From positions 1-30,922 of IMG/VR virus record IMGVR_UViG_3300010268_000085: a stretch of DNA of 30,922 nucleotides. The stretch is one strand, 5' to 3'. Positions 344-22,161 of this stretch are shown here, piece by piece (positions within the stretch are counted from its first letter, which is position 1; the number at the start of each line of letters is the position of its first letter). The notes beneath the pieces were generated by a model. That model worked only from the letters and a program-made list of their open reading frames with translations. It made no database searches and was not told the origin of the DNA. The position numbers and the translations under genes were made by a program. Origin of the DNA: a virus. Lineage: Duplodnaviria > Caudoviricetes.

Positions 344-1894
344 ATGATGAACGTAGCTAAGTATAAAGATATCTTAAAAATATACGAGCGCATCGACTTA
401 TACAGAGCTAAATACAGGCACAATGACTTTACCCCTCATGCATGGTGCTTCCACGGCAACCAGGCACAAGGATGGATAGGTACATGCCAGAATGGCTACC
501 TAAAAGTAAACGGCAAAATCGAATACAATAGAGCTTTCTCAATCAATGCCGCAACATACAAGTATATAACATTAAGGTTCGTAATCCCTGGTATTTCACC
601 CAAATACAAAAGACTTAAACTAACACTAAACTATCAAACACAAAGCGGCACATTTAAGAAAGAAACAATAGTGCCATACGACAACCAGGCAGTAACCGCA
701 CTAATAGACATGTCAGGCGAAGGCAGCTGGAGCGGAACAGTTAATGATATTATCATAAGCTTCAGCATAGAGACAACAGAGAACGTATGGACTAGCATTA
801 CATCAGAGGTCAGATGCGAATACATAAAAGTAGACAAAGAAAATGTGTTCGTAGGCGTAATACAGCCTGCAACTATCACAACAGAAGACGTCAACACGTT
901 CAGAAGCAAGATAGAGACCTTCGCAAAGCAGCAAATAGACTGGTACGGCCCGGATGAAGTAAGACACTTCATAGATACTATAAAGAAGAAAGATATAGAC
1001 GAAGCCAATGAAAGAATAACCACTTTAAAACCATATAACGGCTGTGCCACATGTGACAACTACCAGTGCGGATGCGACATGGCATCGTACGGATATGTTC
1101 CATGCCAAAGGTGTAATGCATGTAATCAACACAGAGGATGTTCTTCTTGTGACTATACATGTTACGAAGAAGCAAGAACCTGTGGATGTAATAGCAGCTG
1201 CTATAGCTACAGCAGTTGTTCATGTAATGGAAGATGCTACTCGCAAGAACCGTGCAGATGCGACGGTAGCTGCTATTCATATAGCACTAAATGTTCTCAA
1301 TGTCATACCTCGCGATATAGAGCAGAAATATACTGTCCTTGCAACGTTTCATGCTATGGTTACTCATGTCAATTACAGTACGGCGAAACAGTACGTACCG
1401 ACTGCAACTACTGCGATGTATGGAGCGACGCCGGTTGTGCGCAATCAGACAAAGGCAGCGGCTGTAAGTGCAACAGCAAATGTTACTCAGAAGGGAAGTA
1501 CGACGGCGATTGGACATGCAAAAAGACTTGCGACAAACACACATGTATATGTGACTCGGGTGACTCAAGCCGGGCAGAACTTATATGCTCAATATGCGAC
1601 AGAACATGTTATGCACAACAGAAGGACAGCGGATGTACATCTGGTTATGGTGAAGTAACATGTACATGTGATTATAGGTGTTACGGCCAGTCATCGTGCT
1701 CGTGCAATAGCGGCTGTTATCTACAGCCAAGATCGTGTACATGCGACAGAAGATGTTACGGATACCAGGGATGCCAGGTGTGCGACGTTTGCGACCTATA
1801 TAAAGCGTGCACATGTAATGCAACCTGTCACCAGCAGTCGTGTGAACAGTGCCATAAGACAAGCTACTCGTCAGTAATCGAAACACTACAGTAA
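344..1894 (+). CDS. Cys-rich repeat protein (N-terminal beta-rich domain plus C-terminal CxC[DN]xxCY repeats); putative radical SAM substrate or virion fibre protein
   Basis: 516 aa with ~56 Cys in aa 233-516 and eight exact CxC[DN]xxCY units plus variants. It is adjacent to a rSAM/SPASM gene. Confidence 0.75.
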   Translation: MMNVAKYKDILKIYERIDLYRAKYRHNDFTPHAWCFHGNQAQGWIGTCQNGYLKVNGKIEYNRAFSINAATYKYITLRFVIPGISPKYKRLKLTLNYQTQSGTFKKETIVPYDNQAVTALIDMSGEGSWSGTVNDIIISFSIETTENVWTSITSEVRCEYIKVDKENVFVGVIQPATITTEDVNTFRSKIETFAKQQIDWYGPDEVRHFIDTIKKKDIDEANERITTLKPYNGCATCDNYQCGCDMASYGYVPCQRCNACNQHRGCSSCDYTCYEEARTCGCNSSCYSYSSCSCNGRCYSQEPCRCDGSCYSYSTKCSQCHTSRYRAEIYCPCNVSCYGYSCQLQYGETVRTDCNYCDVWSDAGCAQSDKGSGCKCNSKCYSEGKYDGDWTCKKTCDKHTCICDSGDSSRAELICSICDRTCYAQQKDSGCTSGYGEVTCTCDYRCYGQSSCSCNSGCYLQPRSCTCDRRCYGYQGCQVCDVCDLYKACTCNATCHQQSCEQCHKTSYSSVIETLQ

Positions 1895-1917
1895 ATATCA
1901 AGAGGAGGGAAAAACCG

Positions 1918-2265
1918 ATGTTCTTAAAATCACATAATGCCACGGTTACTTTTGACGGTAATCTTGTACCTTCTTTGTATAGTATCAAATTTGACGTAGA
2001 TTACAAAAACCCAGTATTAGCCCCATCAGTGATTGAGTGTGTATTTTGTCTTGATAAATATCCTCTCGCCGCGCTCAAAGAAAGCGGCACAAAAATAGAA
2101 ATAAAACTAAGAGATTGTGATGGGAATGACAAGATAGTAATTACATTCAAAAAAGCAGTTCTTGTATCGGAATCTATAGGTTTTATGCTGCTTGACGATA
2201 CAAACGAAGAACTGTATCTAAAAGCCATCTTTGAAGCAGGGTATCCTGAGATAGACAATAAATAA
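1918..2265 (+). CDS. Hypothetical protein, possibly tail-tube-like beta fold
   Basis: 115-aa ORF with RBS GAGGAGG and an alternating beta-strand pattern (ATVTFDG...IEIKLRDCDGNDKIVITFKKAVLVSESIGF). The fold guess is weak. Confidence 0.55.
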   Translation: MFLKSHNATVTFDGNLVPSLYSIKFDVDYKNPVLAPSVIECVFCLDKYPLAALKESGTKIEIKLRDCDGNDKIVITFKKAVLVSESIGFMLLDDTNEELYLKAIFEAGYPEIDNK

Positions 2266-2286
2266 TATAACCGGAGGGAAAGACTG

Positions 2287-5040
2287 ATGGATCTAAGAAA
2301 GAATAAGGCTCTCACGCCTGTCGATTCTGGTTTTCCTATTAGCGCTATCACAATAGACTTAACTACTCGTTGCCCGCTTGCGTGCGACTACTGCTTTAGC
2401 GGAGTATGTAAAGAATACCAGGCAAAAGACCTGACCCCTGAAATGGGCAAAAAAATTATTGATTGGCTGTTTTCGAAAAGTACCCATGGAGACAGTAAAG
2501 AACTCGACATATCATACTGGGGCGGAGAACCTTTGCTTAAATGGGACCTTATGAAAGAACTTACACTGTACGCTGAGGAGAAGGCAAAAAAAGCCGGCGT
2601 ACGTGTAATATTTGGCGGGACCACAAACGTCGTACTATTGACTCCTGATAAGTTTGATTTTCTCGACGAACACAACATAAGGTTTCTCCTTTCAATAGAC
2701 GGTACACAGGAACATCATGACAGGCACAGAAAGTTTAGAAATGGCAAAGGTTCGTGGGAAGTTGTCGACAGGAACGCCACAGAAATACTAAAGCGCTGGC
2801 CAGATAGCCAAGTGCGCCTGTCATATTCCGTGGAAAACCTAGACGGTATAATAGATGACCTAAATTATCTGTATGACAAAGGGTTCCACGACATAGTATA
2901 TTCTCCTGTATCGGAAGGCAACTGGACAGAAGAACGCCTAGAAAAACTAAAAGAAATGTGGGACAAAATTGCCGACTGGTACATCGAAAAAAGAAAAGCA
3001 GACAAGCCCATAAGGCTCAAATTCCTGGAAGATGCATGTAGGCATTTAAACGGCCAACCATGTGGCCCGGGCTCTCCATGCGGCGCAGGCAGAGGCTATG
3101 TATGTATAACAACTGAAGGTGCAATATATCCGTGCGTCAAGCCAGAAACTTTAGTCCGCACATCTAGCGGAATGAAACAGATTAAGGATATCACAGAAGG
3201 TGAATATGTACTTACTCATACAGGGCAATACCAGGAAGTTACAAAACTATGGACCAAGCCATACGACGGGATCATGTACAAGATTACTCCGTATTATTTC
3301 AACATCCCAATAGAATTCACGCCAGATCACCCAGTATACGCAATTAAAGGATCTGAGTGCAAGTGCTGGCATGACAGATACGAACCTGACTGCACAAGGA
3401 CTAACAAAACTGAATGCAAATATAAGTTCTATCAAGACTATAACGCACAATGGATAGATGCAAAAGATATTACTACAAAAGACTTTCTGATCTACCCTAT
3501 CAATAGAACAATCTGCAATATCCCGACGTTCTCTATTGAAACAGAAGGACAAGCAAAGTATATATCTGAATTTACGCCGGATGCAGACCTTATGTATTTA
3601 CTCGGCTGGTACGTCGCAGAAGGCCACACCCAGTACGGACAGACAATCTTTACGCTGTCTCCATATGAAAAAGACATAGCTGAGAAGCTCAATGAAATAT
3701 GCTTAAAAACCTTCGGAATAAGCGGCAGAATATCGGAAGAAGACAATAAGGTCAGACTTATCATATTAAGCGTTGGGCTTGCTAAATGGTTTGAAGAACA
3801 GTTTGGCAAAGGCGCGCTCTGCAAAAAGCTGCCAGACTGGATAATGACTGCACCGCCGGAGCTGCAGCTATACCTGATACGCGGAATGTTCTATGGCGAT
3901 GGCGGAAACGACAGAGGAAAGTCGGCATTCTATAGGACAATATCAGCAGACTTAGCAAACCAGATGAAAGAGCTGCTGCTACGCCAGAATACCGTGCCAG
4001 CTATAAGAATATATGAGCCATCCAGACACAAAGACGGCATTGAACGACAAAGAGAGTATAGAGTATATGTTTGGAATACAGACGACTGCAAAAAGCTATT
4101 CTCGGACCACTGGGTGTTTAAAGAAAAAGTTGGCAAAAAATCAAGGAAGCTCGGATGGATAGACGGCGATTATCTGTATTTGGCCGTACGCAAAGTAGAG
4201 ACGGTTCAATACACAGGAAGAGTATATAACCTCGAAGTTGCCAATGATAACTCATATACTCTCGAATCAATATGCTGTCACAACTGTCATAGATTCCACA
4301 AGATGGACCTGGACGATGCAATTCCGTGGTACGAACAAGAGACTTGCTTAGGCCACATTGATTATGGCATTCTTAACCAAGAGTGGAGAGAGAAGTTCAC
4401 TAAATGGGACCCGAGAAAAGACCTTCCTGAGTCATGCCATAGTTGTAAAGCTTATCTAGTTACATGCTGCGGTGGATGCTGGGCGACCAACTGGGACATT
4501 AATAAGGCGCTCAACAAAGTACCATATATGAACTGTGTCGCTGAGCTTGCTACTATTGCTCAGGCTGAGAAAGCAGCAAGAGAACTCGGAGAAGGATATG
4601 TAAGATCGCTAGTTGGTATACCTGGCAGAATATCATCACTTCCACCCGCACAAGGATGTCAGTGTTACAATGTACACGATGACTTATACGGAAGACAGGT
4701 AGTAAATAGAAGCGACCCGTACTCATGTCTGTGCAATATGTCAACATATGGCATACGCCCTGAGCCCACACGCGGATGTGACTGCTACAATGTAATAGAC
4801 AATGTGCACGGATACGACAGAGGATATTTCGATATGAGCGGTGCGACGTGCAGAAGATTCCAAAGAAGCCCGCTCGACGATGCAATACAGTACCTCGAAA
4901 ACATATCAGACAGGCTCGACAAGCTTACTCAGGAAGAAATGGAGAAGATCAACAGATTCATGAACCTAAAGATGGAAGTCGATGCCAAGGAAAAAGAGTT
5001 TAAAACTCTCCAAAATATAACAGAGTCAATTGAAAAATAA
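2287..5040 (+). CDS. Radical SAM/SPASM-domain maturase containing an intein
   Basis: CPLACDYC (CxxxCxxC), WGGEPLL, TTN, SIDG; SPASM cysteines PCGAG...GAIYP[intein]CHRF...CHSC...CCGGC...C; RBS GGAGGG. Confidence 0.92.
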   Translation: MDLRKNKALTPVDSGFPISAITIDLTTRCPLACDYCFSGVCKEYQAKDLTPEMGKKIIDWLFSKSTHGDSKELDISYWGGEPLLKWDLMKELTLYAEEKAKKAGVRVIFGGTTNVVLLTPDKFDFLDEHNIRFLLSIDGTQEHHDRHRKFRNGKGSWEVVDRNATEILKRWPDSQVRLSYSVENLDGIIDDLNYLYDKGFHDIVYSPVSEGNWTEERLEKLKEMWDKIADWYIEKRKADKPIRLKFLEDACRHLNGQPCGPGSPCGAGRGYVCITTEGAIYPCVKPETLVRTSSGMKQIKDITEGEYVLTHTGQYQEVTKLWTKPYDGIMYKITPYYFNIPIEFTPDHPVYAIKGSECKCWHDRYEPDCTRTNKTECKYKFYQDYNAQWIDAKDITTKDFLIYPINRTICNIPTFSIETEGQAKYISEFTPDADLMYLLGWYVAEGHTQYGQTIFTLSPYEKDIAEKLNEICLKTFGISGRISEEDNKVRLIILSVGLAKWFEEQFGKGALCKKLPDWIMTAPPELQLYLIRGMFYGDGGNDRGKSAFYRTISADLANQMKELLLRQNTVPAIRIYEPSRHKDGIERQREYRVYVWNTDDCKKLFSDHWVFKEKVGKKSRKLGWIDGDYLYLAVRKVETVQYTGRVYNLEVANDNSYTLESICCHNCHRFHKMDLDDAIPWYEQETCLGHIDYGILNQEWREKFTKWDPRKDLPESCHSCKAYLVTCCGGCWATNWDINKALNKVPYMNCVAELATIAQAEKAARELGEGYVRSLVGIPGRISSLPPAQGCQCYNVHDDLYGRQVVNRSDPYSCLCNMSTYGIRPEPTRGCDCYNVIDNVHGYDRGYFDMSGATCRRFQRSPLDDAIQYLENISDRLDKLTQEEMEKINRFMNLKMEVDAKEKEFKTLQNITESIEK
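3133..4284 (+). mobile_element. Intein with LAGLIDADG homing endonuclease (384 aa)
   Basis: N-terminal CVKPETLV, block B TPDHPVY, LAGLIDADG-like motifs LLGWYVAEG and LIRGMFYGDG, block F VYNLEV, C-terminal HN followed by +1 Cys. Confidence 0.92.
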
Positions 5041-13715: not shown

Positions 13716-15284
13716 TCATATTCCCCCTTTCGAGGACGCCATCTTGGCTCTGTTCTTTCTGCACCATTCTCTGATTTCGTTGATTTGGTCTTCCATTGTC
13801 TTTGACAAAGGAACAGTAGCTTTCATAGCGTTTATTATATCGAATGTAGAGATATCAACTCTTCCCATATACTCAGAATATACATCGTACAAAGCAGCCT
13901 CGATTGAAGCCTCAATGTCGGCACCTGAGAAACCTTCAGAACCCTGTGCAAGTTCATCCAGATCAAACTTTTCAGGGTCGCGGTTCCTCTTTTGCAGATG
14001 GATCCTAAAGATTTCCTTGCGTTCTTCCATAGATGGCAAGTCTACGAAGAATATATCATCAAACCTTCCTTTGCGGAGAAGTTCAGGAGGCAATTGCTTG
14101 ATGTCGTTTGCAGTAGCAACGACAAATACGTCGCTATTTTTCTCAGATAGCCAGGTAAGGAAGGTAGCGAAGCATCTTGCAAGCGTTCCGGCGTCAGAGA
14201 AGTTGCTAGAGCCTGTACCTGAAAATCCCTTTTCTATTTCGTCAATCCATAATACGCAAGGCTGAATGGCTTCTGCAACAGCAATCGCCTTACGCATATT
14301 TTCTTCCGAGCTTCCTACTATGCCCTGCATTACTCTGCCTACATCGAACCTTAAAAGCGGCATATCCCAGTAATTTGCTACTGCCTTACACATCAATGTC
14401 TTACCGCATCCAGGTACACCGAGCAATACTAGGCCCTTCGGTGCGGGAATACCGAATTCCCTGGCCTGTGGAGTAAATGCGTGCTTCCTTTTACGGATCC
14501 AGTCTTTGAGATTGTCCATGCCGCCGACTTCTTGCAGTTTATCGGTAGCTTCGTAGTACTCGAGTATATCGGATTTCTTTATGATCTGTTTTTTCTGTTC
14601 CAGGATTGCTTCTGGTTTGAGCCTTCCATGTTCAATATATGAAGCCATCAATGCATCTTCAATTTCATTGGCTGTAAGGCCCTTACAAGCTTTAATGATA
14701 TCGTCTTTTATATCCTGCAAATGAAGAACTTCCTTACCCTTGTCACGCATATAATCTATAATGCCGGTAACAATATCCGAAATCTCCTCTGGCGTCGGCA
14801 GGGTATAGTCTATTACTGTAGTGAGCTTTTCCATTTCGACAGGAATCTTAAGCACGGAAGAAATTATAATTACGGGGGTATACGATGACTTCAGTGTGGT
14901 AACAACATCCTTTAGCATACGTACCACGCCTGCGTCCTTTAAGAATGTGTGAAAATCATACAGTACGAAGATTGCGTCCTGGGAGCAATTCTGTATTACA
15001 TCGAGTATAGCAAGCGGGTTTTCTGACAGATCTCCTTTACTGAGTATAACTTCGTCATCGGGCTTTTTGGAAATAAAATACTTTGATTTTGTTGTTATCG
15101 TGCCGTGTATTGGCTTAACGCCCGATGCCATTGACCATGTACACAGCGGAAACTTGAGCGACTTTGCGATAGAACATACAGTATCAAGTACTCTTGTTTC
15201 CTCATGCGAAACCACGTATATAATATCATTCCTAGCCCCTATGGCGTTGGCCAGTTTGTGCAGATTGTTCATAGTTTTTGCCAA
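13716..15284 (-). CDS. AAA+ ATPase, Ycf46-like
   Basis: SHEETRV N-domain, VGGMDNLKDW, GVPGCGKT, WIDEIEK, ATANDI..LPPELLRKGRFD. Confidence 0.9.
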   Translation of the reverse strand: MAKTMNNLHKLANAIGARNDIIYVVSHEETRVLDTVCSIAKSLKFPLCTWSMASGVKPIHGTITTKSKYFISKKPDDEVILSKGDLSENPLAILDVIQNCSQDAIFVLYDFHTFLKDAGVVRMLKDVVTTLKSSYTPVIIISSVLKIPVEMEKLTTVIDYTLPTPEEISDIVTGIIDYMRDKGKEVLHLQDIKDDIIKACKGLTANEIEDALMASYIEHGRLKPEAILEQKKQIIKKSDILEYYEATDKLQEVGGMDNLKDWIRKRKHAFTPQAREFGIPAPKGLVLLGVPGCGKTLMCKAVANYWDMPLLRFDVGRVMQGIVGSSEENMRKAIAVAEAIQPCVLWIDEIEKGFSGTGSSNFSDAGTLARCFATFLTWLSEKNSDVFVVATANDIKQLPPELLRKGRFDDIFFVDLPSMEERKEIFRIHLQKRNRDPEKFDLDELAQGSEGFSGADIEASIEAALYDVYSEYMGRVDISTFDIINAMKATVPLSKTMEDQINEIREWCRKNRAKMASSKGGI

Positions 15285-16251
15285 CCTCGTCTACCTCCAT
15301 TGCCTTGTCGATCCTCTTGAAAGCGTGTTCCATGTACTGCTTGCTACATGAGCGAACCGCAGCTGTTTTTGAGAGCATTGATTCTATTCTGAAGTCGACT
15401 TTCTTAATTGGTATTATTAACTGCTTACTCTGTAGCAGTTCTGGATTGTCGTCAATAGGTATATACCACTGTTTCTGGCCCTTATCAATCCTAATAAACT
15501 TTAAGTCATTCGTATTGTTATCCATCTCAAACACATTGTTATCCATCTCAAACACAAGGCTGTCGGTGCTACTGGTAAGGGGTTTGCCTGTGAACTCGAT
15601 AGCGATATTTGCTTCTGGATCACTGTACACGAACTTTGCGTCGCGTAGCGTCCCAATAAGCTGATTATGAATATATTTCGGAATCTTTACAGAAATCTGT
15701 GTACTGGCAGGCGATTCTTTTCTTACAGACATGGTCAGCCCGGAAAATGCACCACTTACCGTGTCACCGTTATATATAAAGCCTTTTCCGTTACTCAGAA
15801 CATATTCCTTGCCTGCTCTTACATATAGTCCTCCTATGCCACGTACATTCAGTTTATGGCATAGTTTAACTATACAAGACTGCATTAACTGGTCAATTTC
15901 AGGGTGCTGCCACAGATATCTTTTTGGCTCCTGCATTACACACTCGGCCATTATTTCCTTAAACTTTTCCTTACTTATAGGTTCTTCTATGCGTACAGCA
16001 TTGTCGCCTCTTCCGTATAAGTCATCGTGTACATTTTTATCTGTTACGTACCGTCTTATAAATACGCAGAGTTTTAAAGTATCTGGATCGGATGTGGTGT
16101 CCTTAAACATTGAATCCGGCGTCATTGCCGCATAGTGAGTCAGGTCTATTACAGACAGCTCATACGATTCGTTTACCTTCATCCTCGCGCCGTCATAACA
16201 TGGGTAGCCCTCGAGCTTCTGCCAGTTTATATAGTATTTGTCCTTATCCAT
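15232..16251 (-). CDS. Hypothetical protein
   Basis: 339-aa ORF coupled to the upstream gene; contains an exact 7-aa tandem duplication. Confidence 0.6.
   Translation of the reverse strand: MDKDKYYINWQKLEGYPCYDGARMKVNESYELSVIDLTHYAAMTPDSMFKDTTSDPDTLKLCVFIRRYVTDKNVHDDLYGRGDNAVRIEEPISKEKFKEIMAECVMQEPKRYLWQHPEIDQLMQSCIVKLCHKLNVRGIGGLYVRAGKEYVLSNGKGFIYNGDTVSGAFSGLTMSVRKESPASTQISVKIPKYIHNQLIGTLRDAKFVYSDPEANIAIEFTGKPLTSSTDSLVFEMDNNVFEMDNNTNDLKFIRIDKGQKQWYIPIDDNPELLQSKQLIIPIKKVDFRIESMLSKTAAVRSCSKQYMEHAFKRIDKAMEVDEVGKNYEQSAQTGQRHRG
15514..15555. repeat. Exact 21-bp tandem duplication
   Basis: attgttatccatctcaaacac twice (VFEMDNN twice, in frame). Confidence 0.9.
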
Positions 16252-20450: not shown

Positions 20451-22094
20451 CTACAGCCTCACTCTGTTAATCTGAGCTACGTGTGCACCCGTGCCTTCGA
20501 TCTCATACTTCAGGGCTTCAAGTACTGCTTCACTCCAGCCATAGAAGTATGCTACGCTTGGCTCATTGTCGCTTGCTATTCTGGGTCTATACGGTGCTAC
20601 GTCTATTATGAATAGCCTTGCATCGGGGTTAACCATTCTTCTGTATTTCCTAAACAGCTGCACAACCGGGGTGCCAGCATTTTGCTGTTCGTCAGTAATT
20701 ATAATTATATTGTCAACTTTTATGGGTCTGCTTGTCCTTTCTGATCGAGGAAAGTTAGCATGATACTTGGAAGCAAACATACTTAAGCCGCTCCTGCCAA
20801 CTTCTCCGAGCAGGTGTTCTATTGAAACACCAACATTTGTGCCGCCGCCGCACAGATCTACACACCTAGATACGTTCGTCATGACAGAGTCACTCATGTC
20901 TATCTGCGGGTGAACCAGAGCTGTATTAAAGCACAAGAATATTGCGTCGTTGGACTTTTTTAGTGCGGAAATACCCAGCAGTGCCCCAATCTCAATATAA
21001 TCACCGCTCATTGAGCCGGATATGTCAAGGAATATAGCATTTCTACCTAGCAGCATATCTACGTTCGACAAGGACAGATCAAGTGCTCTGTTAAGTGCTT
21101 CCTTAATATTTCTGTTGCCGTTATAATTCTTATAAGCTGTCGTAAATCTGAACGGAAGCATCTTCGAATTCCTGATCACATCCGGGTTAGTAAGTCTTTC
21201 AACGACGTGTTCAACATTGCTTGGATTGTTAAATACACCAGCGGCCTCGAGCGTATTTAAGTGTCTTACCAATGCGAATATTGGCATCTGGTACATAAGG
21301 CTTTCCCAGATCTCGCGTGTCGGCTTAATAATACCGGTAACGATTTCGTACGGGAGTCTGCCGCAGGAAATGAGCTCATTTGCTCTCTTCGTAAACTCAA
21401 TATCGTCGTACTCATTTCTGTGCTGCGCCAGGATCTTTAGATCTTCGATTGCGCGTACCTGGTCAAGAACACTGGATACTTCTTTTCGTGTAAGGTACCT
21501 AAATAGGTCTGACTGGAAGCTATTCTTCGGGATCGGGTGGGTTTCTCTGATTATATCGCTGAGTGTCCACTTACCTGTTCCTTCTCCACCGCCGTACTTA
21601 ATAGCGTGATACTGAGATAAACCTTCGCCCTTGTGGTTCGTGAGCCAATTGTTTATAGCTCTCTTAACAGTGCGTCCAAAGCCCTTACCGTTTCTCAGGT
21701 TTCCTATGACAGTAACAAAGTCTGTCAGGTCATTCGGTGTCAGAATAACCTTATTAAATGCTGCGTGGAAGTAACTCTTGTCATTGCATAGCGACAGGTA
21801 TGCAAGGCCTACTATTGGCTGCAGCCTCATAAAACCATGGTTTCTTGCATACGTTATGGCCTTTGCCATAAACTTCGGATTTGTGTCCTTCATCTTTTCG
21901 TGCAATGCAAGAGAATACTTGAACAGCTCGTTATCCGACATATAATAGGTATTGCCCACTGTATTCGTCATAACCATCTGTACGTACTGTTCAGACAGGC
22001 TTACGTTGTATGCCGGATAACCGTCAAAGTTCTTCGTGTCGGGAAGGATTATACCTTCATTTCTTCTACCAAACAGATTCTTTGCTCTACTCAT
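20451..22094 (-). CDS. rsr: Ro60/TROVE-domain RNA-binding protein with VWA domain (start probably MSRAKN)
   Basis: NFDGYPAY, YARNHGFMRLQP, KGFGRTVKRAINNWL, YHAIKY, MPIFALVRHLNTL, SKMLPFRF, VWA MIDAS DISGSM, GGGTN, ITDEQ. Confidence 0.9.
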   Translation of the reverse strand: MSRAKNLFGRRNEGIILPDTKNFDGYPAYNVSLSEQYVQMVMTNTVGNTYYMSDNELFKYSLALHEKMKDTNPKFMAKAITYARNHGFMRLQPIVGLAYLSLCNDKSYFHAAFNKVILTPNDLTDFVTVIGNLRNGKGFGRTVKRAINNWLTNHKGEGLSQYHAIKYGGGEGTGKWTLSDIIRETHPIPKNSFQSDLFRYLTRKEVSSVLDQVRAIEDLKILAQHRNEYDDIEFTKRANELISCGRLPYEIVTGIIKPTREIWESLMYQMPIFALVRHLNTLEAAGVFNNPSNVEHVVERLTNPDVIRNSKMLPFRFTTAYKNYNGNRNIKEALNRALDLSLSNVDMLLGRNAIFLDISGSMSGDYIEIGALLGISALKKSNDAIFLCFNTALVHPQIDMSDSVMTNVSRCVDLCGGGTNVGVSIEHLLGEVGRSGLSMFASKYHANFPRSERTSRPIKVDNIIIITDEQQNAGTPVVQLFRKYRRMVNPDARLFIIDVAPYRPRIASDNEPSVAYFYGWSEAVLEALKYEIEGTGAHVAQINRVRL

Positions 22095-22161
22095 AAATAT
22101 TACCCCTTTCCACCTCATCTATGAGGAAAATATATTATTAGAATCAGTTTTTCGGCTTTAT

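Follow-up and report, generated by a model that had tools for sequence, protein, structure and literature searches.

Near one end of a Caudoviricetes virus record (IMG/VR IMGVR_UViG_3300010268_000085, positions 1 to 30,922; this whole stretch of 30,922 nt is here called the window), a radical SAM/SPASM gene lies close to a gene for a Cys-rich protein, which raises the questions of whether the enzyme modifies that protein, by what chemistry, and where the product is used. The ORF at 344-1894 (+ strand) encodes a protein of 516 amino acids, here called the carrier, with a helix, a CBM-like β-sandwich, three helices and a 56-Cys array. It contains 59 Cys in total, 56 of which are within residues 233-516. 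The initial annotation described about 56 Cys in CxC[DN]xxCY repeats, and all the motifs and variants that it quoted were located in the ORF. Eight exact motifs start at residues 280, 292, 304, 331, 374, 440, 452 and 465, and the variants CTCNATCH, CSSCDYTCY, CSICDRTCY and CGCDMASY are found at residues 242, 266, 415 and 489. Shuffled tails contained on average 0.019 and at most 2 strict motifs (n=20,000), versus the eight observed.

The carrier has no sequence match in Pfam, NCBIfam, PHROG or PDB, and neither the single sequence as a query against IMG/VR and INPHARED nor alignment A3 as a query against IMG/VR gave a match; one search retrieved 12 non-self homologs and another 87 matches. A β-rich N-domain followed by a helical linker had been suggested, and the AlphaFold2 model agrees, predicting a β-sandwich at about residues 33-165 (440-838, + strand; pLDDT 71-92 across residues 41-160) and then helices. 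The top Foldseek matches to this predicted domain are CBM28, CBM22, CBM6 and others (E about 1e-5, 9-17% identity). Its ESM Atlas feature matches are all under 0.8 and serve as a lead only. The model gives no usable structure for the Cys tail (pLDDT about 22).

The enzyme gene (2287-5040, + strand; 917 amino acids) is separated from the carrier gene by one gene of 115 codons. It is interrupted by an intein with a LAGLIDADG endonuclease (residues 283-666; 3133-4284, + strand), located directly before the auxiliary-cluster Cys C667. The intein has an N-terminal Cys, a C-terminal His-Asn, a +1 Cys, and Hint and endonuclease domains, and homologs without it read uninterrupted across the insertion site. 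The N-extein (2287-3132, + strand) contains the radical-SAM core (PF04055, E 2e-13), with the CxxxCxxC motif at C29, C33 and C36, and the first auxiliary-cluster Cys, C265. The C-extein (4285-5040, + strand) completes the seven-Cys SPASM domain (C667, C717, C720, C727 or C728, C731 and C750) and adds a motif-bearing tail and a helical end. The seven Cys align with the AC1 and AC2 ligands of CteB and are each present in 94-120 of 120 homologs, with one AC2 Cys missing from 26 of them, while an eighth is present in only 28. The absence of an N-terminal RRE, already remarked upon, holds: the CxxxCxxC motif begins at residue 29, so the 28 residues ahead of it leave no space for one, and 13-43 residues precede the motif in the 99 of 120 homologs in which the start is present. 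The enzyme's own tail (residues 791-858; 4657-4860, + strand) carries 7 Cys in substrate-like units, and 110 such units occur across 62 of the 120 homologs.

The enzyme had been proposed to form thioethers in the manner of PapB and CteB, and its closest profile and structure matches, along with its SPASM Cys pattern, point to the same assignment. The best NCBIfam match is PapB (freyrasin; NF047865, cut-off 340), with 214 bits for the intein-split enzyme, 236 for the intein-less homolog P0124 and 207-261 for six others. It is followed by the SCIFF (TIGR03974; 174 bits, cut-off 425) and QhpD (TIGR03906; 150 bits, cut-off 453) maturases, and the best PDB match is CteB (5wgg, E 4e-67). The enzyme falls under every NCBIfam family cut-off. 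PapB and CteB have the same auxiliary-cluster Cys pattern, but PapB-type enzymes act on a short leader-bearing precursor (PapA) with CX3D motifs, whereas the putative substrate here is a leaderless protein of 516 residues with spacings of +3, +4 and +5. QhpD forms Cys-Asp and Cys-Glu thioethers within a protein subunit, QhpC, and is similar in having a protein substrate; however, its target is an enzyme subunit that receives three links, and a leader and an RRE are involved, while window-type arrays have up to 99 Cys. Against the CXXX-repeat maturases (TIGR04115, cut-off 350), window-type enzymes score 104-175 bits, and the target spacing is 2-3/4/5-6 rather than CXXX. They score 62-90 bits against the anaerobic sulfatase maturases (TIGR03942, cut-off 349), which differ in having fully ligated auxiliary clusters.

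CrpC, which cross-links the 29-kDa protein CrpA in Methanococcus voltae (TIGR04463; PMC13692751, 2026), is likewise a seven-Cys SPASM enzyme, and the large protein encoded next to it carries repeated Cys motifs in which the Cys precedes the acceptor. In that paper, thioethers are demonstrated by MS for CrpA. Unlike the window enzyme, CrpC possesses an RRE, and it relies on the N-terminus of CrpA. The window system is viral rather than archaeal, its partners are mostly Tyr, Asn and Asp rather than of the C-X-X-Q/D type, and many tail proteins of phages bear its motif as a portable tag. The window enzyme scores 61 bits against TIGR04463, for which the cut-off is 525. The word “phage” is absent from the main text of the CrpC paper, and virus-related terms are absent from three of its supplements.

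The initial annotation had made the pairing dependent on homologs of the two genes co-occurring elsewhere, and they do. Starting from the enzyme, a motif protein is present at 17/21 independent non-seed loci flanked by at least 8 kb and at 40/62 of all non-seed loci, compared with 0/49 and 0/50 of the outgroup radical-SAM loci; the window's own record, L119, was excluded from these counts. The enzyme family corresponds to one side of a branch with an SH-aLRT of 98 in a quick tree. Starting from the motif, the enzyme is encoded on 9/11 contigs; a first scan with a DNA pattern gave 16 loci, 8 of them without a true carrier. No qualifying motif protein was found at four non-seed long loci (L017, L039, L181 and L205). 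L007, a record of 37.7 kb with a completeness rating of 100%, encodes a 14-motif protein, and its only radical SAM enzyme (L007:8150-9151) belongs to a second, distant family. GTDB yielded no clearly cellular case, since of its 11 matches only L026, a 2.6-kb contig, has a true carrier. All enzymes in INPHARED are distant, with no more than 33% identity. Judged by gene content, the pairing of enzyme and array is general and extends to dozens of other phages.

What is newly found is a sequence code that gives every array Cys its own downstream partner. The array (residues 233-508; 1040-1867, + strand) is built from units of the form C1-x(1-2)-C3-p4-x-x-C7-p8-x-p10, with a spacing of 2-3/4/5-6, and for every Cys a separate partner from N/D/Y/H/W/E/Q can be assigned at +3 to +5 (56/56; shuffles, mean 70.5%, maximum 47). 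The general partner class (Asn/Asp/Tyr/His/Phe/Trp/Glu/Gln, downstream at +3 to +5), which makes up 40% of non-Cys tail residues, was picked after the discovery set from 9 offset windows and 11 residue sets; in two held-out sets, 1697/1714 (99%) and 642/663 (97%) of the Cys were matched, versus 70-73% in shuffles, and with upstream offsets 84-89% were still matched. Over 539 units, the class occupies p4 in 534, p8 in 538 and p10 in 507, and neither Gly, Ser nor Leu occurs at p4 in 951 three-Cys units. When C7 is lost, p10 residues in the class drop from 457/480 to 49/94 in the discovery set and from 367/379 to 32/77 in a held-out repeat with 43 proteins, and p8 is also slightly relaxed (84/94 in class). 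These motif statistics do not include L009, six chance ORFs of low complexity or the array of L027, which is of a different kind. The near twin L118 differs from the window at 20 tail residues, none of which is a Cys, and all seven changes at assigned partner sites remain in class. Partners are also swapped between near-identical strains, as in N334Y, H399E and Y325H. The rule is satisfied by 7/7 Cys in the enzyme's own tail. Cys arrays beside outgroup enzymes obey it unevenly, from 4/25 to 16/16, and the rule is therefore neither trivial nor unique to the window enzyme family.

Three other origins of the pattern were considered and rejected. A codon artifact would be suggested by the NAY codons common to Asn, Asp, Tyr and His, but a single transition leads just as well to Ser and Gly, which are missing from p4. 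Variation by a diversity-generating retroelement would also yield Ser, Thr, Ile, Gly, Ala and Val. A pairing of p4 with C7 of the NxxC type does not fit, as p4 is in class in 94/94 units even without C7.

The array has a period of 11-13 residues with Cys six apart, which is reminiscent of the insect antifreeze β-helices, and solenoids often contain ladders of Asn and Tyr. It could thus be a disulfide-bonded or ladder-stabilized β-solenoid with structural Asn/Tyr stacks, and the enzyme would have another substrate. We regard this as highly improbable: array Cys counts have no even bias (58 even, 60 odd), C7 alone is missing in 171 internal units, a turn/ladder class of N/D/S/T/G matches 85% of the Cys versus 83% in shuffles, and the enzyme family and the array co-occur specifically.

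With 20% Cys in CxC and CxxC spacing, the array could also be a metallothionein-like metal or Fe-S strip, in which Asp, His, Tyr and Glu would join Cys as ligands, and the enzyme would load or trim it without cross-linking; Asp, His, Glu and Tyr are common metal ligands. Metal binding is the function suggested for CrpA in the available part of its description (PMC13692751). This explanation is very unlikely, since the non-ligating Phe occurs at p4, p8 and p10 in 15, 19 and 38 units, Ser, Thr and Met are nearly absent from these positions, and neither a strict one-to-one, downstream-only pairing nor a ranthisynthase-type enzyme would be expected. Of the earlier suggestion that the protein is cross-linked or metal-loaded, the first half is thus favored, because there is exactly one partner per Cys, and the second is disfavored.

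Because the enzyme travels with the arrays and every Cys has its own partner, the phage enzyme likely joins each array Cys by a thioether to its partner, in a carrier that is probably located in the tail; we hold this combined reading with fair, not high, confidence. A ranthipeptide-type modification of the array is thereby predicted. Splicing of the intein would restore auxiliary cluster 1, in which, as in CteB, three Cys of the protein would leave one iron open, and a substrate Cys would ligate this iron. The 5'-deoxyadenosyl radical would then abstract a hydrogen from a CH2 adjoining a carbonyl or an aromatic ring (the Cβ of Asn, Asp, Tyr, His, Phe and Trp, or the Cγ of Glu and Gln), where the resulting radical would be resonance-stabilized. 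Formation of each C-S bond would change the mass by -2 Da, up to -112 Da for the window carrier. Links of C1-p4, C3-p8 and C7-p10 in a standard unit would turn an otherwise unstructured tail into interlocked rings arranged as a chain. Being proof against reduction, these rings would take the place of disulfides and would be made in an anaerobic cytoplasm. The motif itself would be the recognition signal, with no leader or RRE required, and the array could therefore be grafted onto unrelated tail proteins at either end or in the middle.

The code predicts one thioether per Cys, about half of them to aromatic residues. An Asp/Asn type of partner had been envisaged, which proved too narrow, as the code also takes in Tyr, His, Phe, Trp, Glu and Gln: aromatic residues are 26/56 of the assigned partners in the window, and an Asp at +4 is assigned to only 8/56 Cys. 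Parts of this chemistry have precedents in the available sections of the literature. PapB/CteB-type systems link Cys to a downstream Asp Cβ or Glu Cγ in nested rings, as proposed here, and PapB accepts CX0-6D and is active without its own RRE (PMC9413430, PMC12715619). NxxcB forms a thioether through a radical at the Asn Cβ (PMC9389541), Asn being in the partner class here, and DarE and the dynobactin enzyme activate the Cβ of Tyr, His, Phe, Trp and Asn for ether or C-N links (PMC10705402, PMC11002830). These three act on short secreted peptides rather than a full-size protein, and in the available sections none is reported to join a Cys sulfur to an aromatic Cβ. No radical-SAM thioether to a Tyr, His or Phe Cβ was found in the literature search.

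The enzyme may instead modify the array by a different or divided chemistry, in which only Asn, Asp, Glu and Gln would be cross-linked by the window enzyme, while the aromatic residues would be linked at ring carbons or Cα, served by the second radical-SAM family, or packed on free Cys. PapB did not cross-link a substrate with Asp changed to His, according to the available part of PMC10739248. The second radical SAM/SPASM family occurs at 14/30 long family loci, is the sole such enzyme in L007, and could do part of the array chemistry. Moreover, N/D/E/Q alone match 999/1714 held-out Cys, exceeding the 49% in shuffles. However, one and the same position can hold Asn, Asp, Tyr, His or Phe, and near-identical strains can differ there, an interchange most simply explained by the use of a single type of atom. 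In addition, the 31-kb window and 16/30 long loci have no second enzyme within reach. A different or divided chemistry is thus unlikely, and we retain thioether formation to the whole partner class.

Where the cross-linked carriers would be used is indicated by their relatives. Carriers range from 62 to 1571 residues, with up to 99 Cys per array. Of 56 scanned against PHROG, 14 match tail families (central tail fiber J, 8; baseplate, 1; collar, 2; tail protein, 2; tape measure, 1, weak), and none matches another named category. Tail or head genes are among the scanned neighbors at 18/21 loci. The array is a portable module on J-like tail tips, baseplate, collar and C1q fiber proteins. The substrate had been described as a full-size protein and not as a secreted peptide, in agreement with a 516-residue carrier and with the genes adjoining the carrier-enzyme pair, among which no transporter or peptidase was found, as stated earlier. 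A papain-like gene lies on the opposite strand, 20 kb from the pair.

The window carrier itself is probably part of the virus tail. In L118 and L116 the carrier lies between DnaB/primase/PhoH and RuvC/sigma genes, and since this is a replication block, we infer the virion role from the relatives and the CBM-like head domain. It is conceivable, although unlikely, that the chemistry is as proposed but the window carrier acts in or on the host during replication. The conserved position in L118 and L116 and the lack of a PHROG tail match fit such a role, as does a profile comparison between the window helices and the N-terminal helical region that other carriers have, which was not significant (probability 1-2%). 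Against it are the predicted CBM-like domain, the absence of a signal peptide or membrane segment in a crude hydropathy scan, the tail modules that house most related carriers, and a tail that diverges faster than the enzyme (pN/pS 0.68 vs 0.12, from small counts). The adjoining 115-residue gene (1918-2265, + strand) also speaks for a tail location, as a lead only, in that it resembles phage tail-tube (T4 gp19-like) proteins: its ESM Atlas feature score to viral clusters is 0.94, and PF06841 is found on 16% of the members of one cluster. Among the loci compared, only the window and the near twin L118 have this gene. Upstream of the carrier in L118, no promoter-like site exceeded chance expectation. 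Part of each of the two genes is covered by RNA-library contigs in run X1, with patchy coverage in three other runs, and such contigs cannot show transcription. A location in the virus tail is preferred for the window carrier.

Taken to its full extent, the proposal is that a leaderless tag in dozens of unrelated phages with several tail types is converted by a dedicated RRE-less enzyme into continuous interlocked thioether rings, one for each Cys and as many as about 100 in a protein, of which half would run from Cys to the Cβ of Tyr, His or Phe and which would armor tail tips, fibers and baseplates, and that the enzyme staples its own tail as well. We give this broader proposal slightly less than an even chance. 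The literature search found the stapling of virus tail parts described nowhere, and found no RiPP-type post-translational chemistry on virions. The sequence code makes the cross-linking claim testable residue by residue on short synthetic peptides. If true, phages carry RiPP-type enzymes that mature their own particles, and this would account for a class of orphan radical-SAM genes located in the tail regions of phages. It would also extend the thioether synthases to aromatic acceptors, and provide a leaderless, position-independent stapling tag with its enzyme for rigidifying proteins.

The ORF at 344-1894 (+) encodes 516 amino acids with 56 cysteines at residues 233-516, and all eight of the motifs quoted in the initial annotation were found in it (8/8); shuffled tails contained at most two strict motifs, compared to eight in the actual sequence. 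An AlphaFold2 model, with a 13-row alignment as input, consists of a helix, a beta-sandwich (aa 41-160, pLDDT 71-92), three low-confidence helices and an array without structure. The beta-rich domain proposed from the sequence is predicted with confidence, the helical linker is of low confidence, and the Cys tail was modelled without structure. The beta-sandwich is best likened to carbohydrate-binding modules (CBMs; Foldseek, E about 1e-5). In L118, the near twin of the window, and in the more distant locus L116, the gene for this array protein (the carrier) is preceded by those for primase, DnaB and PhoH and followed by that for RuvC. Since the carrier gene is located outside the tail module, a putative virion role rests on its fold, its relatives and a 115-aa neighbor that resembles tail-tube proteins, the last being a lead only. 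The end of a mobile element (1-347) abuts the start codon of the carrier; it is missing in L118, and RNA-library contigs carry the same element in other contexts.

The array is placed at the C-terminus in 50 of 107 carriers, internally in 26 and at the N-terminus in nine, and it makes up a whole mini-protein in 22. Tail families in PHROG, such as central tail fiber J, baseplate and collar fibre, were matched by 14 of the 56 scanned carriers, none of which matched any other named PHROG category, and further Pfam domains include C1q, F5/8 and collar. Tail or head genes are found near 18 of the 21 loci with scanned neighbors (132 ORFs, picked by hand). Some J-like tail proteins apparently consist of two genes with the break inside the Cys array, leaving units in each half (L127:90-2125, L128:2120-4155 and L205:2124-3440).

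A LAGLIDADG intein interrupts the gene for the radical SAM/SPASM enzyme (2287-5040, +) directly ahead of C667. The top profile matches of the enzyme are the PapB, SCIFF and QhpD maturases, every one under the cut-off, and by the respective cut-offs it is not a member of the PapB, SCIFF, QhpD, CXXX-repeat, CrpC or anSME families; we infer that it works like these enzymes. Its best match in PDB is CteB (E 4e-67), and its seven SPASM cysteines line up with the CteB ligands given in the consulted part of PMC10177961; these are kept in 120, 120, 116, 94, 116, 120 and 116 of 120 homologs, respectively. The absence of an RRE, noted initially for this one enzyme, extends to its homologs, as none of the 99 with an intact start have space for one. 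The family is a hot spot for inteins, which occupy no fewer than five distinct sites adjoining cluster-binding cysteines (proteins P0065 and P0100, and loci L153:3226-5586, L169:8882-11245 and L185:849-3717), of which that in L153 is identical to the site in the window. A 57-base, Cys-containing intein segment (3358-3416) is lacking in L118 and in one RNA-library contig (run X1).

The initial annotation proposed a search for co-occurrence of the two genes in phages as a check. Three DNA-pattern scans for the motif gave 36 loci, reduced to 11 contigs with true carriers, nine of which also encode the enzyme family, at a distance of 22-35 kb in three. Of the others, L110 ends at the contig edge. 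L007 is a real exception: it is rated complete and contains the array, and its radical SAM/SPASM genes are limited to another, distant family. Among 185,579 prokaryotic genomes, a single true carrier was identified, on a 2.6-kb contig. From the enzyme side, with the best 80 matches per scan and loci clustered at 90% identity, a motif protein was present in 46 of 71 family clusters compared to 0 of 50 other radical-SAM clusters. The association holds in 40 of the 62 family clusters that remain, among the same best 80 matches per scan, after omitting nine that were known from the motif side or represent the twin of the window, and in 17 of 21 with at least 8 kb of flank, versus 0 of 49 other radical-SAM clusters. 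Membership was defined by a profile score of 300, or 225 where a contig end cuts the gene, and in a quick tree of 91 cores, a branch with SH-aLRT 98 separates the 68 family rows, including the window, from the others. Ten carriers, five of them of the window type, equal a listed enzyme in exact longest-contig size, which is circumstantial.

The unit in 64 discovery carriers is C1-x(1-2)-C3-p4-x-x-C7-p8-x-p10, where p denotes a proposed partner position. The partner class (N, D, Y, H, E, F, Q and W) consists of residues with a CH2 beside a carbonyl or an aromatic ring, a position at which radicals are stabilised. With C7 present, the class occupies p4 in 534, p8 in 538 and p10 in 507 of 539 units, and the non-partner positions p5, p6 and p9 in 33%, 5% and 19%. 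A separate partner at +3 to +5 can be assigned to every array cysteine in the window (56/56; 20 Tyr, 14 Asp, 8 Asn, 6 Gln, 5 His, 2 Glu and 1 Trp), compared to a mean of 70.5% and a maximum of 47 in 2,000 shuffles, the class and the offset window having been chosen post hoc. One-partner matching covered 2043/2065 cysteines in the discovery set, 1697/1714 in the held-out set and 642/663 in 26 further proteins that form the third set, although the held-out sets were retrieved by profiles built from these repeats, and relatives among the proteins are not independent data points. Alternative three-position offset windows match 65-89%, and Glu and Gln partners occur almost exclusively at +3. The tails of the window and L118 differ at 20 residues, none of them Cys, and all seven changed partner sites stayed in class.

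When C7 is replaced, p10 in class drops from 457/480 to 49/94 internal units of the discovery set (within-protein permutation, p 5e-5), while p4 stays in class in 94/94 and p8 relaxes little (84/94). In 43 held-out proteins, p10 fell from 367/379 to 32/77. A search for units without C1 gave 16 matches, of which by eye nine were CxxxC starts and two were outside arrays; p4 in the remaining five is G, V, V, G and G, and this small set points to a putative pairing of C1 with p4 and, by elimination, of C3 with p8. The tail of the enzyme itself fits the code (7/7 Cys in the window), with p10 in class in 29/29 tail units with C7 versus 6/81 without it. An exact 27-base inverted repeat (4669-4695, +; 16009-16035, -) encodes, in frame, the same nine residues in this tail and in an unrelated 339-aa ORF (15232-16251), which also contains an exact 21-base tandem duplication (15514-15555).

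These patterns bear on what happens to the array. Loading with metal is disfavored, since Phe occupies partner sites, and so are disulfides, since Cys counts lack an even-number bias and C7 is lost alone. One partner per Cys, always downstream, together with a ranthisynthase-type enzyme, is what thioether crosslinking would predict, and we consider it fairly probable that the family enzyme joins each Cys by a thioether to its own downstream partner in a probable virion protein. This proposal is least secure in its aromatic acceptors and, for this phage, in the virion location. In the portions of the sources consulted, NxxcB acts on Asn (PMC9389541), DarE and the dynobactin enzyme activate an aromatic C-beta (PMC10705402, PMC11002830), and a 29-kDa protein is a substrate for the thioether reaction of CrpC (PMC13692751). 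The literature searched, in which subscription journals are mostly not covered, contained no report of a Cys-to-aromatic C-beta thioether or, including the consulted part of PMC12801897, of a virion protein modified by a radical-SAM enzyme from a phage. Five virus-related terms were absent from three supplements of PMC13692751, whose other supplementary files could bear on the point.

Beyond the pair, the window, which comprises a complete virus record of 30,922 bases, encodes RuvC, a sigma factor, methylases, an SNF2 helicase, a TROVE protein, tRNAs and a tmRNA. L118, located on a 126-kb contig and 98-99% identical, provided the genes upstream of the window. Judging from the sigma factor, the tmRNA and an NrdG-like activase, the host would be an anaerobic bacterium. 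The TROVE/Ro60-like gene (20451-22118) is followed further along by a tRNA cluster and the phage tmRNA (27598-30910).

Many family loci contain an accessory cassette with a second radical SAM/SPASM family (14/30 long loci), an HxGH protein with a weak pantoate-ligase match (12/30) and a GNAT-like protein (9/30), for example at L006:5074-7601, L003:4674-7248, L005:13180-16303, L007:8150-9897 and L187:7522-13327; neither the window nor any of 50 outgroup clusters contains members of it. Arrays beside other phage radical-SAM clades have spacings such as CxxxCQ and CNCNYCT (L027:2614-3513, L043:12606-13481, L044:6458-7360, L210:11196-11738, L217:11348-11947, L230:11334-12554, L234, L240 and L269), and some of these phages are large (230-250 kb).

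The observation is real, the proposed chemistry is of a known kind, and its biological setting is undescribed in the literature searched. The present analysis contributes a partner code together with tests of it by covariation, the CBM carriers of the window type, and L007 as an exception. Since sister enzyme clades adjoin Cys arrays of other spacings, the system would, judging from these sequences, belong to a broader strategy of phages that has further branches.
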